Shown here in pieces: positions 15,874 to 25,907 of a stretch of 64,000 nucleotides of DNA. Origin of the DNA: Chitinivibrionales bacterium (lineage in GTDB: Bacteria > Fibrobacterota > Chitinivibrionia > Chitinivibrionales > WJKA01); assembly GCA_038247415.1 (NCBI GenBank), contig JBBRUX010000011.1, positions 28,199 to 92,198 of the forward strand, written 5' to 3'. The stretch's first letter is position 1, and the number at the start of each line of letters is the position of its first letter. The notes below the pieces were generated by a model, which saw nothing but the letters and a program-made list of their open reading frames with translations, made no database searches and had not been told where the DNA came from. A program made the position numbers and the translations under genes.

Positions 15874-18800
15874 ATGCGTATTCGAATAGTTTGCTGTGTA
15901 TTCGTTTTTCTAACGGCACAACTCTTTGCTGCACAAACACCACCCACCCCGGGGACATCATCAACGTATAGCAAACGAATACTTTTCTGCAGGCCTGCCG
16001 ATGTCTCTGCAAAGCAAGGTCAGGGGCTTTTTTTTGGAGCACTTTCCACAGAATATTTACAATTCAGACTCTCCGCGATTAGTTCTTGCACTGTTATCCC
16101 CACACAGAGCGTTATTGCCGCCTATGCGCCTTATGCAAACATTGCTGCCGAAATATCCGACGAAGAGTATTCCCGCATAGCCACCTCCCTTAAAGCAGAT
16201 TATATTATTGCTCAAAAATGCGAAGTAAGTAATGCCGATAAAAATGTTTCATTTTATCTCGAAATAAGCCAAGTGGGCCATGCAGGATCCACAAAATCAA
16301 TAGAACGGTCCTTTCTGCTTGCCGATGCAGGACAAAACCTCGACTCGTGCATGTTAAGCCTCACAACCATTTTAGGCACTCCCATTCTACCCCAGCTCGA
16401 ACGTTTTTTCAAGATGCCTGTTTTATCGCAAGACCCAAAAAACCTGCGAACACTGGGTGAAATCATACTTGCCGATCAGTATATTCACGACACGCGCAAT
16501 GGCGACATTAGTACTCAATATGCTGCTCTTGTAGCCTTAGACGTACGCATGGATTTGGGATATTATCTTGGCGCAGCAGCCTATATGCACGAAAAAAAAT
16601 ATCGTAAAGCAGCCGATTATTATAAACACCTTTACGATATCATTCCAGAATACTTTCCTATTTATTTCAAACTAGTAAACGCCTTGCGCTTAGGACGAGA
16701 TTTTACAGAAGCGGCTGAATTTGGGAAAACAGGTCTTGGCCGCAATCCGCGATCGGTAGAACTGCTTGCAGAACTTGCCGCGACCTACGAAGCAATGGGA
16801 AGAAATGTCAATGCAGAAGATGCTTTTCGACAAATGCTCACCATCGATTCCCACAACCTTCAAGCGCTGCTCTTTTTTGCCCATACCCAAAATAGTCGGA
16901 ATAAGCCAGAAGAAGCCATTGCCTATGCCGATGCGGTGTTAAACATTGACAGTACTCAGAGCATCGCGTGGACAGAAAAAGGCAACGCTCTTTTTACTCA
17001 AAGTAAACTTGCGCAAGCTATCCCTTGCTTAGAAAAAGCTATAGCGCTCGACAACAACGCTCCACAACCTCGGCTATTGCTGGGCGATATCTTCGTAACC
17101 ACAAAAGAATATGCAAAAGCTGCAACACAATTTAATGCTGCTGCACTTGCATCTCCTAATGATGTAGACATCCAGCTTAAAGCTGCGAACGCAAATAGCC
17201 TTGCAGGTGAAATTCCCAAAGCAGTTCTCGCCCTTAAAGCAGTGGAAGGCCGATTCGCCACAAACATGGTGCTCAAAAAAGAATTAGGACTTTTAGAACT
17301 TGCCAAAGGCGACACCACTGCCGCACAAGCACACCTTGAAACTGCTCTCGCGGATCAAAAATCCGACTTTCGTCTCCTCATGGCATTAGGAAATATTTAC
17401 ACTGCTAAAAAATCCTACGATAATGCTCTGCGCATGTACAATCAAAGCATGCCCCTTATTACCGATAAAAATGCCTGCCGGATTGCCTTGGCAAATCTTG
17501 CTCTTATCCAAAAAGATGTCCCGCGCGCCCAGTCGCAGCTCAATGAAATTGCTCACAATGCTCCCGATTATCTAAAAGTAAACGAATTCAAAGGCGAGTG
17601 TGCACTACTCGGAGGTAATAAGAGTGCTGCTTTGCCCCTTTTTCTACGTGAGCGAGAAGTGCATGGAACCAATCGAGGCCTTGCACAAAACATAACCTGG
17701 CTCTACTTCGATGCAAAAAACTGGAAGCAAACAGACATCGAAGCGCGCGCGCTCCTCAAAATCGATCCTACAAATGCCGAAGCCCTCTTTCGCTTTGGAA
17801 CAGCACTTATGCAGCTTGGTAACGCACCTGAGGGATCTTCGGCCATTGCCAAAGCACGACAAACTGCAAAGCCATCTGCCGCCCTTGCCTTTGAAATTGG
17901 TCGTGGACATGCTTTCGTCGAACAATTTGACAACGCAATAAGCTGCTATCGGGAATGCCTAGCGGCACTTCCCCAGCGCGAAGATGTTTGGCTTGAACTC
18001 TCCGATATGCTCATTGCCACAAAGCAAGATTCCGCAGCTGCAGAAGCATATCTCCACCTCTTTACTTTTAACCCATCGCTTTACAAAGATAAACTTGCCG
18101 ATGCAGGACACATTTTTAATCGGCTTGGAAATAAAACCTCGGCTCGCTCTGCCTACATCCTTTTTCTTGATACTAAATTTAAAAATCCTCAGGTTAATGT
18201 CAACCTGGCAAGCATTGAATTTGGGCTTAAAAATTATGCCAGGGTCGTGGAACTGCTGCAACCACTTTCTGATGCGGAACTTTCTGAAGAGGCTCAAATT
18301 ATTGCTTTTGCACAATCGTATATTTCACTTGGAAAATTTGCGAACGCAAAAGCACCCATTGCACGAATCCTCAAACGAAATCCTCGCCATATAAAGGCAC
18401 TTGAGCTCTCTGCTCTGTGCAGCGAAAAAACTAACGACTTAACTACTGCAATAACGGTTAATGAACAACTTGTTGATATTGCACCGCCAGAAGTATCGGT
18501 AAACTGCGCCTTTCATGCAGGTGAATTATACGAGAAGTTAGGACGCCGTGACGAAGCAATTGCACGGTATACAAAAAACATCGATAAATTCCCAAGCGAT
18601 GTGCGTAGTTTTGATCGATTGGCAATTATCTATTGTGCAGCCTTCGACTGGACAAAGGCTCAACCTATTTTGCAAAGAGCTCTTGCATTGCCACAAGTCC
18701 CACCGCGCTTATTTAATCTTCTTGCGCAATGCTATACTTCCCGCAGTCAGACAGACAGTTCTATTATCTGGTATCAAAAATATGTAACCTTAGCGCCAAC

Positions 18801-20679
18801 CGATTCTATTGCCTGGGAACGTCTGGGAAAAGCATTCTTTGTAAGTAAAGATTATAAAAAATGCATTGCTCCGCTCAAAATGGCGGTCAAGTTCATGCCA
18901 GCGCATGCAGAAAGCCATATAATGCTTGGAACCGCGTTGCTTGAAAACAACCAATATGCAGATGCCAGCGTATCTCTTCTTGCTGCAAGCGCATTAAAGC
19001 CTACCGATACCGAGATTCTAAGCCTTCTTGCTTCTTGTTATCGGAACCTCAAAGATAAAAATAGCCTCATAACAACGCTTTTGCTGTGGGCTAAACTCGA
19101 TGTACAGTCGTATGATATTCGCATTGAGCTTGCCGGCCTGCTCTTGGGTGCGGGTCGTTATGCAGAATCGGTTCCCATACTACAAGGCGCCGCTGCGATT
19201 AATCCCGAAAGCCCTATTGTTTACAAAATGCTTGCAACTGCATCAGAATTTGTTGCCGACACCAAGGCACGAGGGACCTATCTTGCAAAAGCACTCGAAT
19301 ATTCCCCCCGCGACCCAGATCTTCTGTATCAGCTTGGACGATTTTACCAAAGCGGCAATGAAGTAACAAAGGCAGCAGCATCCTATAAATTGGCAATCGA
19401 CCTAAGCCCTACCCAGAGTGCTGCACGCTATGAATATGGCATGATTCTCTTTGCGCAACAGAAAATGCCCGAATCGCTCGAGTACCTAGAAGCAGCAATG
19501 AGCCTAGAGCCCGACAATGCTCGCTATTGTGCACAGTATGCTCGCGTTGCAATTGGCTTTGGCAATGCTCAAAAGGCACTTGCTGCTGCCACAAAAGCAT
19601 TAGAAAAAAGCCCCAAGGATTTCGTTGTATTGTCAAGTACTGCCATGGTATTTACCGCTGCGGGTCAAACGGTAAAAGCCAAGCAGATATTGCGTAGCGC
19701 GCTCGAGGCAAATGAAAAATGTATCGACTGTTATACAGCCCTTGGCGAGGTTAATACCATCGAAGCTAATTACAAACAGGCAGTAAAAATGCTTATGCGG
19801 GCATGGGAATTAGCGGGATACAACGAGGACATCGTATTTCGACTTGGCTGTGCACTCAGTCACGACAGCAAATTTATCGAAGCGATCGATTTCTTCAAAA
19901 TGGTTCTTTCGAAAAATCCAGCCAGCGATGTCACTCTCTATCAGCTTATTTATATTTATTGTCATAACGGGAATATTGCACTGGCCCAAACCGTGCTCGA
20001 CGCGTTTGAGCGCGATCAGAAAAAATCCTACTGGACTCAGGCAGCTCGTGGCGAAGTTTTCCTTGCCCAAGGAAATCTTGATGGTGCATTTCTTTCTCTT
20101 AATGTGGCAATTCGCCTTTCACCCGATGATCCCCACATTCTCGATGCGCTGGGAAGAACATCTTTGGCAAGTAGGCAATACGATCAAGCAATTGTAAATT
20201 TTGGAAAAGCAATGGCATCCGACCCCAACAATCCCAATTTACTTATTGGACTAGCAAAAGCTTATGAAGGGCAAGGCAACGTGGATGCTGCCCTGGATCT
20301 TGTTGCACCCCTTTTATCACGATTCACCGAAAATACCGAAGCATTTTATACGGCAGCTTGCCTTAAAGCGAAACAAGGTAAACATGCAGAAGCGCTTGCT
20401 TTGGCCAAACAAGGTATTGGCTACACTCCCCTTTCCTCAAACCTTCACATAATTCTTGGCAATGAGCTCGCAGCCACAGGATTATTCCACGATGCAATCG
20501 AAGCCTATGCACAAAGCCTTAAACTCAGTAACAATACTGCTATCGATACCTATCGACTCATTGGTGATGTATATAGAGTAAAATTATCTAACCCGTCTAA
20601 GGCCAAAGAATACTATCAAAAGTATCTCAAGTCTGGCGGGACAAATGGCGAAGTAAAATTATTACTTAAAAGATTATAA
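15874..20679 (+). CDS. Giant exported TPR-repeat protein (1601 aa) with N-terminal TolB-N/CsgG-like domain
   Basis: Signal peptide (QLFA|A) and dozens of roughly 34-aa repeats with the LG..Y...G...A....A...P pattern. Confidence 0.85.
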   Translation: MRIRIVCCVFVFLTAQLFAAQTPPTPGTSSTYSKRILFCRPADVSAKQGQGLFFGALSTEYLQFRLSAISSCTVIPTQSVIAAYAPYANIAAEISDEEYSRIATSLKADYIIAQKCEVSNADKNVSFYLEISQVGHAGSTKSIERSFLLADAGQNLDSCMLSLTTILGTPILPQLERFFKMPVLSQDPKNLRTLGEIILADQYIHDTRNGDISTQYAALVALDVRMDLGYYLGAAAYMHEKKYRKAADYYKHLYDIIPEYFPIYFKLVNALRLGRDFTEAAEFGKTGLGRNPRSVELLAELAATYEAMGRNVNAEDAFRQMLTIDSHNLQALLFFAHTQNSRNKPEEAIAYADAVLNIDSTQSIAWTEKGNALFTQSKLAQAIPCLEKAIALDNNAPQPRLLLGDIFVTTKEYAKAATQFNAAALASPNDVDIQLKAANANSLAGEIPKAVLALKAVEGRFATNMVLKKELGLLELAKGDTTAAQAHLETALADQKSDFRLLMALGNIYTAKKSYDNALRMYNQSMPLITDKNACRIALANLALIQKDVPRAQSQLNEIAHNAPDYLKVNEFKGECALLGGNKSAALPLFLREREVHGTNRGLAQNITWLYFDAKNWKQTDIEARALLKIDPTNAEALFRFGTALMQLGNAPEGSSAIAKARQTAKPSAALAFEIGRGHAFVEQFDNAISCYRECLAALPQREDVWLELSDMLIATKQDSAAAEAYLHLFTFNPSLYKDKLADAGHIFNRLGNKTSARSAYILFLDTKFKNPQVNVNLASIEFGLKNYARVVELLQPLSDAELSEEAQIIAFAQSYISLGKFANAKAPIARILKRNPRHIKALELSALCSEKTNDLTTAITVNEQLVDIAPPEVSVNCAFHAGELYEKLGRRDEAIARYTKNIDKFPSDVRSFDRLAIIYCAAFDWTKAQPILQRALALPQVPPRLFNLLAQCYTSRSQTDSSIIWYQKYVTLAPTDSIAWERLGKAFFVSKDYKKCIAPLKMAVKFMPAHAESHIMLGTALLENNQYADASVSLLAASALKPTDTEILSLLASCYRNLKDKNSLITTLLLWAKLDVQSYDIRIELAGLLLGAGRYAESVPILQGAAAINPESPIVYKMLATASEFVADTKARGTYLAKALEYSPRDPDLLYQLGRFYQSGNEVTKAAASYKLAIDLSPTQSAARYEYGMILFAQQKMPESLEYLEAAMSLEPDNARYCAQYARVAIGFGNAQKALAAATKALEKSPKDFVVLSSTAMVFTAAGQTVKAKQILRSALEANEKCIDCYTALGEVNTIEANYKQAVKMLMRAWELAGYNEDIVFRLGCALSHDSKFIEAIDFFKMVLSKNPASDVTLYQLIYIYCHNGNIALAQTVLDAFERDQKKSYWTQAARGEVFLAQGNLDGAFLSLNVAIRLSPDDPHILDALGRTSLASRQYDQAIVNFGKAMASDPNNPNLLIGLAKAYEGQGNVDAALDLVAPLLSRFTENTEAFYTAACLKAKQGKHAEALALAKQGIGYTPLSSNLHIILGNELAATGLFHDAIEAYAQSLKLSNNTAIDTYRLIGDVYRVKLSNPSKAKEYYQKYLKSGGTNGEVKLLLKRL

Positions 20680-22378: not shown

Positions 22379-22412
22379 CCCGCGCAAATACCGTGCGGGA
22401 TCTATTTTATTA
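22379..22412 (+). terminator. Possible intrinsic terminator upstream of tatA
   Basis: CCCGCGC-aaatacc-GTGCGGG hairpin followed by ATCTATTTTATT. Confidence 0.4.
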
Positions 22413-22466: not shown

Positions 22467-22673
22467 ATGGGCAACATCGGCTTCAATGAATTACTCATTA
22501 TCCTTGTCATCGTATTTCTTCTCTTTGGTGCTAAAAAGATTCCCGAACTTGCAGCAGGGCTTGGAAAAGGCCTCAAGGAATTTAAAAAGGCGCAATCGGA
22601 GCCCGTTACCCCACCCGAGGTTACCGATAAGAAAACAGCAACTCCTACGGATACAACAGAGAAAAAAGCGTGA
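22467..22673 (+). CDS. tatA: Twin-arginine translocase TatA
   Basis: [41 protein letters not shown], adjacent to tatC. Confidence 0.93.
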
Positions 22674-23395
22674 CCCGTCCTTCGGCAGAAATGCCCATTC
22701 TCGACCACCTCGAAGAATTACGGTGGAGGATTATTAAGGCGCTGGGCGCTGTTATTGTTTTTGCTATCCCCAGCGGTATCTACTGGCGAAAAATTTTCGA
22801 CCTTGCGCTCGTATACCCAATGAGCATTGCCAATCCACGACCACGCCTTATTTTTACCACTCCCGGCGAAGCCGTTGTCATCAGTATGAAAATCGCCATT
22901 GTTGGCGGTATTATTGGCGCCCTGCCGGTTCTTTTTTATCAACTTTGGAAATTTGTTGCCCCAGGGCTTTACAAACACGAAAAGAAAATAATACTGCCTA
23001 CCGTACTTGCCTCTACATTTTGTTTTCTCCTGGGCGTTTCATTTGCATACCTGGTGCTTCCCTATTTTGTAAAATTTCTCGCCGAATATGGTGCAGGCGT
23101 GCTCGATCCTTTTTTTAAGGCATCCGATTACATTAATTTTATTATGACCATGGTACTCTCTTTTGGAGCAATTTTCGAATTGCCGGTTGTTGCATTTGCG
23201 CTTGCAAAGCTTGGGATTATTACACCCCAATTTCTTATTAAAAATATCAGATATGCGATCGTGCTCATTTTTGTGGTGGCAGCAATTCTTACCCCTCCCG
23301 ACATTATTTCACAATGCGTTATGGCTGCGCCCCTCATCATTTTATATGGCATGAGTATCCTTACTGCCCACTGGGGACAAAGGAAAAAAACATGA
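22670..23395 (+). CDS. tatC: Twin-arginine translocase TatC
   Basis: [36 protein letters not shown] and AAILTPPD. Confidence 0.96.
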
Positions 23396-24192
23396 TGAAT
23401 GGTATTGGCTTTGGTGAAATTCTCCTGATCGCCCTTTTGGTACTTCTCTTTTTTGGCTCGAAGGAACTACCCGATTTCATACGTAAAGCAGCACAGTTTA
23501 TGGGTAAAATAAAGCAAGCAACCGATCGCGTCCGCTCGGAAATAGATTCCATCGCAACGCCGATCACCTCAATGACACCCCTGCCCGATGCCGGCGCACA
23601 GCGAAGAAACGATGTGCGCATCGAATACCGCGCACATCGAAAAGAGGTACCAGAGGCCTCAAGAAAATCTGCAGCAACGTCAATTACCCAGCACATCACT
23701 CAATTGCCGTCGTATGCCCAATGCACTGCTCTGATGGTGTATGTAAGCGCTCATTCCGAAGTTGACACGAGTGAACTCATTGCACAATGCTTTATCGATA
23801 GCAAACGAGTTATTGTGCCCTATTGCAAAGAGCATACAAATACCATGGGAATTGCAGAGATCAAGAACGTCCAAACCGACCTCGAACTGGGTTCATGTGG
23901 CATACGGGAACCAATCAAAACGCTCCGGGATAATTTTCTTCGCAGCGATCTTACCCTTATCATATGCCCGGGAATTGCATTCGACCGATTTGGCGGACGC
24001 CTTGGCAATGGGAAAGGCTACTACGATTCATTCTTGCGCGAACTTAAAGGAAGATGCCACATGGTAGGCATTGGTTATTCCTGTCAAATACTCGACAACT
24101 CTTTACCATTCTCTTATCATGATATTCCCATGGATCAAGTCATAACCGAAAACGGACCACTCATTACCCAAGCACTCCAGCAGCAGGGATAA
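23392..24192 (+). CDS. Fusion protein: TatB/TatA-family N-terminus plus 5-formyltetrahydrofolate cyclo-ligase
   Basis: ATGA overlap with the tatC stop. N-terminus [30 protein letters not shown] is Tat-like; C-terminus has SEVDT, PGIAFDRFGGRLGNGKGYYD and HDIPMD (YgfA/MTHFS motifs). Confidence 0.85.
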   Translation: MMNGIGFGEILLIALLVLLFFGSKELPDFIRKAAQFMGKIKQATDRVRSEIDSIATPITSMTPLPDAGAQRRNDVRIEYRAHRKEVPEASRKSAATSITQHITQLPSYAQCTALMVYVSAHSEVDTSELIAQCFIDSKRVIVPYCKEHTNTMGIAEIKNVQTDLELGSCGIREPIKTLRDNFLRSDLTLIICPGIAFDRFGGRLGNGKGYYDSFLRELKGRCHMVGIGYSCQILDNSLPFSYHDIPMDQVITENGPLITQALQQQG

Positions 24193-24201
24193 ATTCGAGC
24201 A

Positions 24202-25119
24202 ATGGTACTCGTCCTTCTCTATTGCGCATGCGGCCTTGGGTTAGGTTTACTAACGATTCTTTTCGGTCGCTTCTATCTCGACATTCAAGCCGAATCTTCC
24301 CAGTCAAACCACTCCGGTAACGCACTGGGATGGTTTATACATCCTGTATTTTTACAATTTCGCTACACCTATCCGGCAGCATATGGGGTTCTTCGCATCG
24401 CCTTTTGGACATGGAAATTACCCTTCAAAGATTCTCAAGACCCGCTTCCACCACAAGAGGCTCGTCCTCATAAACCAAAACCTTCTCCCAAAAGCCAAAA
24501 GAGCACCGTGGCCGCTGCGAGAATAACACACGAGATTTCGCCCCGATCTCCTCTACAAAGCACGCAACAAACGATAGAAACACCGCATTCTACCTACGAA
24601 AAAACTTCATATAAAACCTCCACTCAGCAAACGCCGCGCCCTAAAAGAGCACATAGAATAGCACGTTTTTTTTCATTTCTCCGGTCGATTCCAACCAGAC
24701 TGCGGGCAAACCCATGGGTATATCTTATTAGTCAACGAGCCTATCTCGCAAAAATCGGTAGATGGCTGATACGGATTCTTAAGGCAGCATATTATTTTGT
24801 AAGTATTAAAGAATTATCGGTTCGCATTGCGGCATCCTTCGAAAATCCGGCAGACACGGCAAAACTCTATGGTTATTGTGAGGCACTGCGGGCAGCCGTT
24901 ACTACACAAAAAAAACGAGCGTTTTCATGTGTTTTCGTCCCATGTTTTGCAAACGAACCAGTGTCCATTTTTGCAACGGTAAAGGTTCAAACATCGGTGT
25001 GGCAAATGCTGGGCCCTGTATTTATTGGTGTTGCTACATTTCCATATCTTCATACATTTTGGATACTCAGAGCAATGAAAAAACGCACAAAGCATTCCAC
25101 TAAGGATTTGAGAGTATGA
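24202..25119 (+). CDS. Membrane-anchored hypothetical protein (DUF2953-like)
   Basis: N-terminal TM segment, low-complexity linker and FENPADTAKLYG motif. Confidence 0.55.
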   Translation: MVLVLLYCACGLGLGLLTILFGRFYLDIQAESSQSNHSGNALGWFIHPVFLQFRYTYPAAYGVLRIAFWTWKLPFKDSQDPLPPQEARPHKPKPSPKSQKSTVAAARITHEISPRSPLQSTQQTIETPHSTYEKTSYKTSTQQTPRPKRAHRIARFFSFLRSIPTRLRANPWVYLISQRAYLAKIGRWLIRILKAAYYFVSIKELSVRIAASFENPADTAKLYGYCEALRAAVTTQKKRAFSCVFVPCFANEPVSIFATVKVQTSVWQMLGPVFIGVATFPYLHTFWILRAMKKRTKHSTKDLRV

Positions 25120-25907
25120 CGGCACTTGAAACTCTCGATTCAATCGCCGAACTTTTTGGGCGTGCAACTCGTGAAGCAGTCATGGAAGTTGGTGCTATTT
25201 CGATTTTTTTCTGGAAAGTCCTCCGAGTATGCCCAACCCTCATTTTTAAGAAGTTTCATCTCCTTACCGAACAAATGCTCCGTATTGGCGTTGGCTCCAT
25301 TCCGCTCATAGCTTTCATCTCGGTGTTTATTGGGGCGATCACTGTATGGCAAATCAAATACTTTTTTGCCGACATGATTCCCTATTCTATGCTGGGAACC
25401 CTTGTGGGAAAAGCTGTTTTCACCGATCTTGGACCTGTTCTTACAGGACTTGTGATAACCGGCCGAATTGGCGCGATGCTTGCCGCAGAGCTAGGCACCA
25501 TGAAGGTAACAGAACAAGTTGCCGCTATGGAAATCCTCTCGCTCGATCCCTTTTTATATCTTTTAGCACCTAGGATTCTTTCTGGATTTATCATGATGCC
25601 AATGCTCGGCATTATATCATCATTTCTTGCCATCGAAAGCGCTCAATTACTGGCTGCAATGGCGCTCGATGTATCATTTGATACATTTTATAATGGTGTT
25701 CGACTTTTGTTCAGAGTACAAGACGTAATAATCATGCTCACTAAAACATTTGTTTTTGGTGGCGTCGTTGCGCTCTCGGGGTGCTACTTTGGTTACCTTA
25801 CCCATGGGGGTGCAGTTGAAGTTGGACAAGCCACCAATCGCGCTGTTGTCCGTTCGTCAATTTTAATACTGATGATGAATCTTGTGGTTGCAGCGTTGTT
25901 GCTCTAA
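25116..25907 (+). CDS. mlaE: MlaE-family ABC transporter permease
   Basis: GVGSIPL, LGPVLTGLVITGRIGAMLAAELGTMKVTEQVAA and GGAVEVGQATNRAVV. Confidence 0.9.
   Translation: MTALETLDSIAELFGRATREAVMEVGAISIFFWKVLRVCPTLIFKKFHLLTEQMLRIGVGSIPLIAFISVFIGAITVWQIKYFFADMIPYSMLGTLVGKAVFTDLGPVLTGLVITGRIGAMLAAELGTMKVTEQVAAMEILSLDPFLYLLAPRILSGFIMMPMLGIISSFLAIESAQLLAAMALDVSFDTFYNGVRLLFRVQDVIIMLTKTFVFGGVVALSGCYFGYLTHGGAVEVGQATNRAVVRSSILILMMNLVVAALLL

Follow-up and report, generated by a model that had tools for sequence, protein, structure and literature searches.

Can a single gene supply a bacterium with both a subunit of its protein-export machine and an enzyme of folate metabolism? The question is raised by a gene in the 64,000-nucleotide (nt) stretch of DNA from the sediment-dwelling Chitinivibrionales bacterium analyzed here (contig JBBRUX010000011.1, positions 28,199 to 92,198; below, "the window" means this whole stretch), where one open reading frame (ORF), tatB::mthfs, opens with a TatB-like module of the pathway for twin-arginine translocation (Tat) and closes with a complete 5-formyltetrahydrofolate (5-formyl-THF) cyclo-ligase, the enzyme known as MTHFS or YgfA. 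The answer that we consider likely from comparison of the sequences is yes: the product would be a bifunctional protein, a TatB and a membrane-tethered, active MTHFS made from one gene. Moreover, what the initial annotation of this DNA had treated as the oddity of a single genome proves to be a trait of the phylum Fibrobacterota, present in 18 of its 21 family-level groups. The gene and its parts are as follows (pLDDT, predicted local distance difference test).

23392..24192, forward strand: fusion gene tatB::mthfs (266 aa plus stop), from the ORF translation, profile matches and an AlphaFold2 model.
23392..23556, forward strand: TatB-like module, residues 1-55, with a transmembrane helix at 7-20, a hinge (FGSKELP) and an amphipathic helix at 26-55.
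23557..23589, forward strand: linker, residues 56-66 (TPITSMTPLPD, 11 residues), a block with pLDDT near 65 and the non-conserved Met61.
23590..24177, forward strand: MTHFS (5-formyl-THF cyclo-ligase) domain, residues 67-262, with pLDDT above 94.
23998..24027, forward strand: signature loop R203-L-G205-N-G207-K-G-Y-Y-D212 (RLGNGKGYYD).

The frame runs without interruption through 266 codons (23392-24192, forward strand). Its ATG at 23392 shares the letters ATGA (23392-23395) with the stop codon of tatC, and AAGGA stands at 23380-23384, 7 nt upstream of that ATG; frame and overlap were verified, just as first described, as one unbroken 266-residue ORF coupled to tatC. A sequencing or assembly artifact that merged a tatB with a ygfA was considered and ruled out by the contigs of individual sequencing runs and by conservation in relatives. 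Three runs of one study (X1 and X2, the possible sources of the window's DNA, and X3) gave contigs that span both the linker and the boundary between tatC and the fusion, and these show 0 differences and 0 gaps; short contigs of X4, from a separate study, are identical over 23305-23585. Since contigs of four runs from two studies agree without difference or gap, the frame is not the product of an indel; the indel or lost stop in the linker against which the initial annotation had cautioned is found in none of them.

The N-terminus (GIGFGEILLIALLVLLFFGSKELP) matches Pfam TatA_B_E (PF02416) over residues 5-50 at 24.8 bits, against a cut-off of 21, and at 27.4 bits in the genome scan. The AlphaFold2 model, which was built on 57 fused homologues and has a mean pLDDT of 91, consists in this region of a helix at residues 7-20, a break at 21-25 and a second helix at 26-55. 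Profile and model together bear out the TatA/B transmembrane and amphipathic helices that had been proposed from the letters alone. In an alignment of the 57 fused proteins, which are 23-62% identical to the window protein, the acidic E9 is kept in 56 and K24 in 52; at E<=0.001, 51 of the 57 match the tatB model and 36 the tatAE model. With phmmer, the N-terminus found a solved "TatB homolog" (9e02_F). The TatA proteins of the phylum follow the pattern LFGAKK.PELA.GLG.G..EFKKA, as against FFGSKELP.F.R......K.R.Y.D.V..E.D in the fusion N-terminus. The genome, which is 96% complete, contains 2 TatA_B_E matches (tatA and the fusion gene) and 1 MTHFS match (the fusion again), so that a search for a separate tatB or ygfA, suggested with the first description, comes back empty: the fusion is the only TatB-like gene and the only MTHFS. 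The Tat pathway is in use in this organism, with 2 TAT-signal matches above cut-off in the genome.

The fate of the module elsewhere in the phylum follows that of Tat. Four genera with free MTHFS (g14, g22, g25 and g40) encode, directly after tatC, a stand-alone protein of the fusion type, 52-65 aa long, that ends exactly where the linker would start. This small TatB is present in 8 of the 11 tatC loci examined, the remaining loci being L075, which meets a contig end, L076, with no tatB, and L080, a second tatC copy without tatB. Among 296 species-level genomes of the phylum, TatC is absent from 61; of five such Tat-less genomes that are 92-100% complete (G042, G015, G293, G189 and G278), none has a TatA_B_E match and all keep MTHFS, with the N-terminal module gone. 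No genome with a TatB-anchored MTHFS but no tatC was found, in a search that was not exhaustive. A complex prediction for TatC with fusion residues 1-66 scored 0.00, gave no answer and was counted neither way. Taken together, the comparisons argue that the N-terminal module is a TatB, and not just an anchor.

With TatB of the TatABC system (E. coli type; TIGR01410, PF02416) the module shares a short transmembrane helix with the acidic E9, a hinge and an amphipathic helix, a place in the tat operon beside tatC, the presence of a distinct TatA paralogue, and TIGR01410 as its best NCBIfam match. It differs in gene order, which is tatA-tatC-tatB here and tatA-tatB-tatC in the E. coli-type operon; in its score, which lies under the equivalog cut-off; in the length of its stand-alone orthologues in the phylum, just 52-65 aa; and in that a folded 20-kDa enzyme takes the place of the hydrophilic, dispensable C-terminal tail. 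TatB normally combines a minimal anchor with a disordered, dispensable tail. In a 2026 review, which cites Lee et al. 2002 for the dispensability of the tail, TatA and TatB are described as needing the anchor, the amphipathic helix and few further residues, with a dispensable C-terminal domain (PMC13186574). The TatAC system (Bacillus type) has its counterpart in genus g42 of the same phylum, which has tatA-tatC only, and TatB is therefore dispensable within the clade; the window's genome, by contrast, retains a second, TatB-like paralogue, and one that bears an enzyme.

The remainder of the protein is a full-length MTHFS. PF01812 (5-FTHF_cyc-lig) matches residues 74-253 at 136 bits (cut-off 27) over profile positions 3-186 of 186, and TIGR02727 (MTHFS_bact) scores 149.3 bits against an equivalog cut-off of 84.9. 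In Foldseek, with TM-scores normalized by the target's length, the model matches Bacillus anthracis MTHFS (2jcb_A/B) at E 2e-19, with a TM-score of 0.89-0.92 and a root mean square deviation of 2.0 Å, and human 3hy6 with a TM-score of 0.86. The loop GGRLGNGKGYYD is present and aligns to GNRLGRGKGYYD of human MTHFS 3hxt; we take this GxRxGxGxGYYD loop to be ATP-binding. Hence the complete YgfA/MTHFS domain with RLGNGKGYYD that had been read from the sequence is upheld, with both profiles above their cut-offs and the fold matched. Eight residues are invariant in all 57 fused proteins (E123, P193, R203, G205, G207, D212, Q232 and D244), and R76, K138, P143, E173, P174, G194, F197, D198 and G201 are conserved in at least 90%; the enzyme half is probably active. 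The domain shares its full length, its fold and the GxRxGxGxGYYD loop with bacterial MTHFS/YgfA (TIGR02727; 2jcb, 1ydm, 1sou, and human 3hxt). Unlike the known enzymes, which are soluble and about 180-210 aa long, it is the C-terminal part of a membrane protein, and, in a further departure from bacterial MTHFS/YgfA, no 6S RNA gene lies near it: an Rfam search of the whole window gave no match, hence no 6S RNA beside this ygfA homologue. The start of the MTHFS coding region also contains, at window positions 23610-23639, a perfect 10-bp inverted repeat (CGATGTGCGC...GCGCACATCG), which folds as RNA at -19.1 kcal/mol (z = -3.9 against shuffles); it may be a matter of chance or specific to the strain, because the encoded peptide is not conserved in relatives.

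The same architecture recurs throughout the phylum. When relatives were drawn from a search of 5.8 billion proteins, 114 of the 120 listed carried both PF01812 and PF02416, at 39-62% identity (the window's own protein being one of the 114), so that the search for TatA_B_E plus 5-FTHF_cyc-lig proposed in the initial annotation is answered in the affirmative. With a distant fused query of 276 aa, about 28% identical to the window protein, coverage of at least 92% of the query is reached by 114 of the 120 relatives listed; in this divergent group the TatA_B_E Pfam tag is attached to just 17 of the 120 listed proteins. The organism names of the relatives are Chitinivibrionales, Chitinispirillaceae, Fibrobacteres, Fibrobacteria, Fibrobacterota and "Fibrobacter sp." metagenome-assembled genomes (MAGs). 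In the genome scan, 289 of the 296 species-level genomes have a match to the fusion protein. Counted by hand, with full length defined as a match that begins no later than residue 7, reaches at least residue 217 and stays in a single open frame, 103 of the 150 genome matches listed are full-length (102 without the unpublished G253), and these fall in 15 of the 21 family-level groups. Reading ORFs by eye adds f12, f13 (genera g41 and g43) and f14, for a total of 18; their N-termini (e.g., MIFDSLGIGE..., MNAEIGFSEF... and MDLGIGFSEF..., each leading into a P/K hinge and then an amphipathic helix) are too divergent for a single-protein search. In f2, a contig end cuts the gene just after the TatB module.

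The fused ORF is present in all 50 of the loci L004-L053, with tatC directly upstream in 48. At L009 and L027 (genomes G046 and G045, genus g20), tatA stands directly before the fusion and tatC is on another contig; the g20 operon is rearranged, with the fusion kept. A locus search with a narrower alignment gave 46 full-length loci, all of them Fibrobacterota-type MAG records (one titled "uncultured bacterium"), and 2 matches to the N-terminus only, in a Flavobacterium and a Micavibrio MAG; the two patterns used in locus searches are clade-specific and say nothing on absence outside the phylum. In the ESM Atlas the two Pfam families occur together in one cluster, among whose members Fibrobacterota is the commonest phylum, again no test of absence elsewhere.

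The fusion gene has the following neighbors in the window.

22379..22399, forward strand: terminator-like hairpin, then a T-rich tail, after the upstream gene (consensus scan only); likely the 5' boundary of the tat operon.
22467..22673, forward strand: tatA (68 aa, TatA-type motif); TIGR01411 tatAE at 69.2 bits, cut-off 53.9.
22670..23395, forward strand: tatC (241 aa); PF00902 at 228.5 bits and TIGR00945 at 202.7 bits.
24202..25119, forward strand: orf305 (305 aa, membrane protein), a conserved downstream gene with a sub-threshold DUF2953 match only.
25116..25907, forward strand: mlaE-type permease gene, overlapping orf305; PF02405 at 208.8 bits.

tatA and tatC are joined through a GTGA overlap, tatC is a single copy in the genome, and orf305 starts 9 nt after the fusion stop. 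Because of the 4-nt overlaps upstream and the 9-nt spacing downstream, tatA-tatC-tatB::mthfs-orf305-mlaE reads as one operon. By tblastn, orf305 adjoins MTHFS in 31 loci, fused and free forms alike, and mlaE is syntenic with MTHFS, fused or free, in 22. In the window's order, the C-terminus of many fused proteins is ...AG, ...SG or ...QG, preceded by a variable tail, a pattern that may come from a ribosome-binding site for the next gene lying within the final codons. Window positions 15874-20679 (forward strand), upstream of the tat operon region, encode a 1601-aa protein with abundant TPR-like repeats and an N-terminal signal-like segment.

The two halves also occur apart, and the split forms bear on both the history and the meaning of the fusion. 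Free, soluble-type MTHFS was found in 22 examined loci. The idea that these are foreign replacements was mostly rejected, for they nest among the fused forms of their own family-level groups. The tree of MTHFS domains (82 rows, four outgroup proteins, a quick IQ-TREE search with support from the Shimodaira-Hasegawa-like approximate likelihood ratio test only) broadly follows the family-level groups, with the free forms nested among the fused and at least 8 state changes; it leaves the placement of f6 ambiguous. The free MTHFS genes of f5 keep the downstream orf305 and mlaE, and since free MTHFS in the window's order retains these neighbors, it is the tat genes and the 5' part of the fusion that were deleted or moved: deleted in g12 and g19, moved in g14 and g22. 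The simplest reading would be an early fusion that was later separated several times.

Genus g40 has taken a course of its own. There, tatB is a stand-alone 65-aa gene after tatC, and in genome G089 a 584-aa RNase D homologue (L098:85-1839, forward strand) combines DNA_pol_A_exo1 and HRDC with a C-terminal 5-FTHF_cyc-lig; other g40 genomes have frames of 584-619 aa open around their MTHFS match, which suggests that they share this RNase D::MTHFS fusion. In both the TatB and the RNase D fusions, an unrelated protein carries MTHFS at its C-terminus as a passenger; they differ in the partner, and in that the TatB fusion is phylum-wide and tied to the export machine. Because MTHFS is fused to RNase D instead in g40, it behaves as a passenger of a promiscuous kind. 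These comparisons do not support the link that the initial annotation drew from this gene between folate metabolism and protein export: relatives have a stand-alone TatB and a free MTHFS, and therefore neither half needs the other, as would fit two independent functions in a fusion that is tolerated.

A confounding case is group f14, in which the domain on TatB has decayed.

L083:2151-2936 and L094:2151-2966, reverse strand: f14 genes for TatB::degenerate MTHFS, next after tatC; the proteins P0122 and P0123 are of this form too.

In the TatB-attached domain of f14 the motif reads FSEAYMRMSHRKDFYAN, with G205, G207 and D212 lost; PF01812 still scores 57 bits. G237 and G238, the two genomes of f14 that the GTDB set contains, are nearly identical at the locus and also encode a free canonical MTHFS (GNRIGHGKGYYD; L063 and L071). 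A third homologue, P0123, is 64% identical overall and has the same degenerate loop; in this comparison of two homologues the TatB part is 89% identical, the linker 42% and the MTHFS-like domain 60%, with no stops. The degenerate domain is an open frame in three genomes. To judge from its motif, the domain is probably inactive. The f14 evidence comprises three sequences from one genus-level group. A protein of 595 aa, encoded just downstream of the tat genes in f14, has a twin-arginine signal (SRRSFLK) along with a CxxC motif and is probably an oxidoreductase exported through Tat.

In the bifunctional protein that we favor, the first ~55 residues would serve as TatB, a minimal functional TatA/B unit of short transmembrane and amphipathic helices, and would take part with TatC in the twin-arginine signal-peptide receptor. 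The short linker would hold a complete MTHFS on the cytoplasmic face, where, as the cell's only copy, it would carry out the ATP-dependent recycling of 5-formyl-THF to 5,10-methenyl-THF. A genuine in-frame fusion of a TatB-like module to MTHFS, with no conserved internal start, places the enzyme on that face of the membrane, and to this extent the tethering proposed in the initial annotation stands. The sequences themselves establish the architecture, how widely it is conserved, its synteny, the sole-copy status and the conserved active-site motif; that both halves are active when fused is what we infer. The fusion would have arisen early in Fibrobacterota, when a neighboring enzyme replaced the dispensable hydrophilic tail of TatB; most lineages would then have inherited it, and on several occasions it would have been undone or lost. 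The likeliest reason for it is tolerated co-expression, with a passenger enzyme riding on a low-abundance housekeeping subunit, and not a coupling of Tat to folate.

Several observations weigh against this account. The N-terminus scores 41.2 bits with the tatB model TIGR01410, under the equivalog cut-off of 56.5 (tatAE gives only 26), and the FG of the hinge in this copy looks TatA-like. No tatB is detectable downstream of tatC at L076 (genus g14). The fusion of G248 (G248:C50:24674-25426) and the tatC of G281 (G281:C1:4861820-4862446) each have one in-frame TAG in an otherwise full-length match, which could be decay of the Tat system, sequencing error or read-through. Moreover, the long retention of the fusion is unexplained if the enzyme is just a tolerated passenger, and the state of the f14 domain suggests that it has been retained for something other than catalysis, perhaps for TatB itself. 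The model score lends itself to a different explanation, in which the N-terminal module is a borrowed TatA/B anchor and nothing more, MTHFS is tethered to the membrane without a share in Tat transport, and TatA, encoded upstream, is bifunctional in the manner of TatAC; systems with TatAC only occur in this very phylum (g42) and, according to the review, in Bacillus (PMC13186574). We hold this to be quite unlikely, for loss of the module coincides exactly with loss of Tat, in 5 of 5 Tat-less genomes; orthologous stand-alone copies stay right after tatC once the enzyme has left; E9 and K24 are conserved; and the free forms of MTHFS have no anchor at all, so that no requirement of the enzyme for a membrane is evident. 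Still less credible, indeed very improbable, is that two proteins come from the frame, by an internal start at the linker Met or by processing, or that assembly merged tatB and ygfA. The linker does contain M61 (ATG 23572), its sole Met, and 38 nt downstream stands a strong hairpin. However, the letters before this ATG (...gccgatcacctca) include no purine-rich stretch, in agreement with the initial annotation, which saw no clear ribosome-binding site there; and conserved internal initiation was rejected, since a Met in the stretch between reference residues 51 and 76 occurs in only 21 of the 57 fused proteins, at positions that do not align. An artifact, for its part, is contradicted by the identical sequence in contigs of two studies and, as is the two-protein idea, by a frame that is open in more than 100 genomes.

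The f14 evidence points in another direction, to the MTHFS-fold domain as a working part of the Tat receptor, engaged in substrate docking or proofreading or in nucleotide- or folate-responsive control of export, with enzyme activity secondary. The domain lies ~10-25 residues from the amphipathic helix, in place of the substrate-contacting cytoplasmic region of TatB, and that part of TatB is reported in two papers to bind folded precursors and to have a quality control that is chaperone-like (PMC2993744, PMC9436932). Consistent with such a role, the fusion extends over 18 of 21 family-level groups and down to 23% identity, and the stretch from the end of the amphipathic helix to the first MTHFS helix is uniformly short, 21-39 residues in 55 of the 57 fused proteins. 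Moreover, f14 keeps its degenerate domain on TatB beside a free canonical MTHFS, and this domain is 60% identical between homologues whose linkers are only 42% identical. Nevertheless we rate the idea as unlikely. Four genera make do with a TatB of 52-65 aa without an extra domain, and g42 with tatA-tatC only; no active-site residue varies among the 57 fused proteins aligned, as ordinary enzyme function predicts; in g40 MTHFS is fused to RNase D instead; and the case from f14 comes down to one genus-level group and its three sequences. The bifunctional TatB::MTHFS thus continues to be the reading that we prefer.

In the literature searched, in which subscription journals were thinly covered, no description of a TatB-MTHFS fusion was found, in line with the initial annotation, which knew of none. 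The architecture is undescribed rather than unseen, because precomputed Pfam tags show it, as does an Atlas cluster that was named automatically. In the source records consulted, the full-length proteins are all named "5-formyltetrahydrofolate cyclo-ligase," with the exception of one "hypothetical protein," the degenerate f14 form; with such names, and with the TatA_B_E tags missing, these genomes would be scored as having no TatB.

What makes the fusion of wider interest is that it puts a 20-kDa folded enzyme, phylum-wide, at the very site where TatB reportedly contacts folded substrates. The arrangement offers a natural experiment on the bulk that the TatBC receptor can accommodate at its cytoplasmic face, and one that comes with natural controls inside a single phylum, in the split, Tat-less and dead-enzyme forms. 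As a built-in globular tag, the enzyme could aid structural work on TatBC. Should the MTHFS-fold domain after all be a working part of the receptor, this would explain why a dead copy stays on TatB in a lineage with a free MTHFS of its own. If the fusion is merely tolerated, it would be a rare genomic change, clean and datable, that serves as a marker of lineages in Fibrobacterota.

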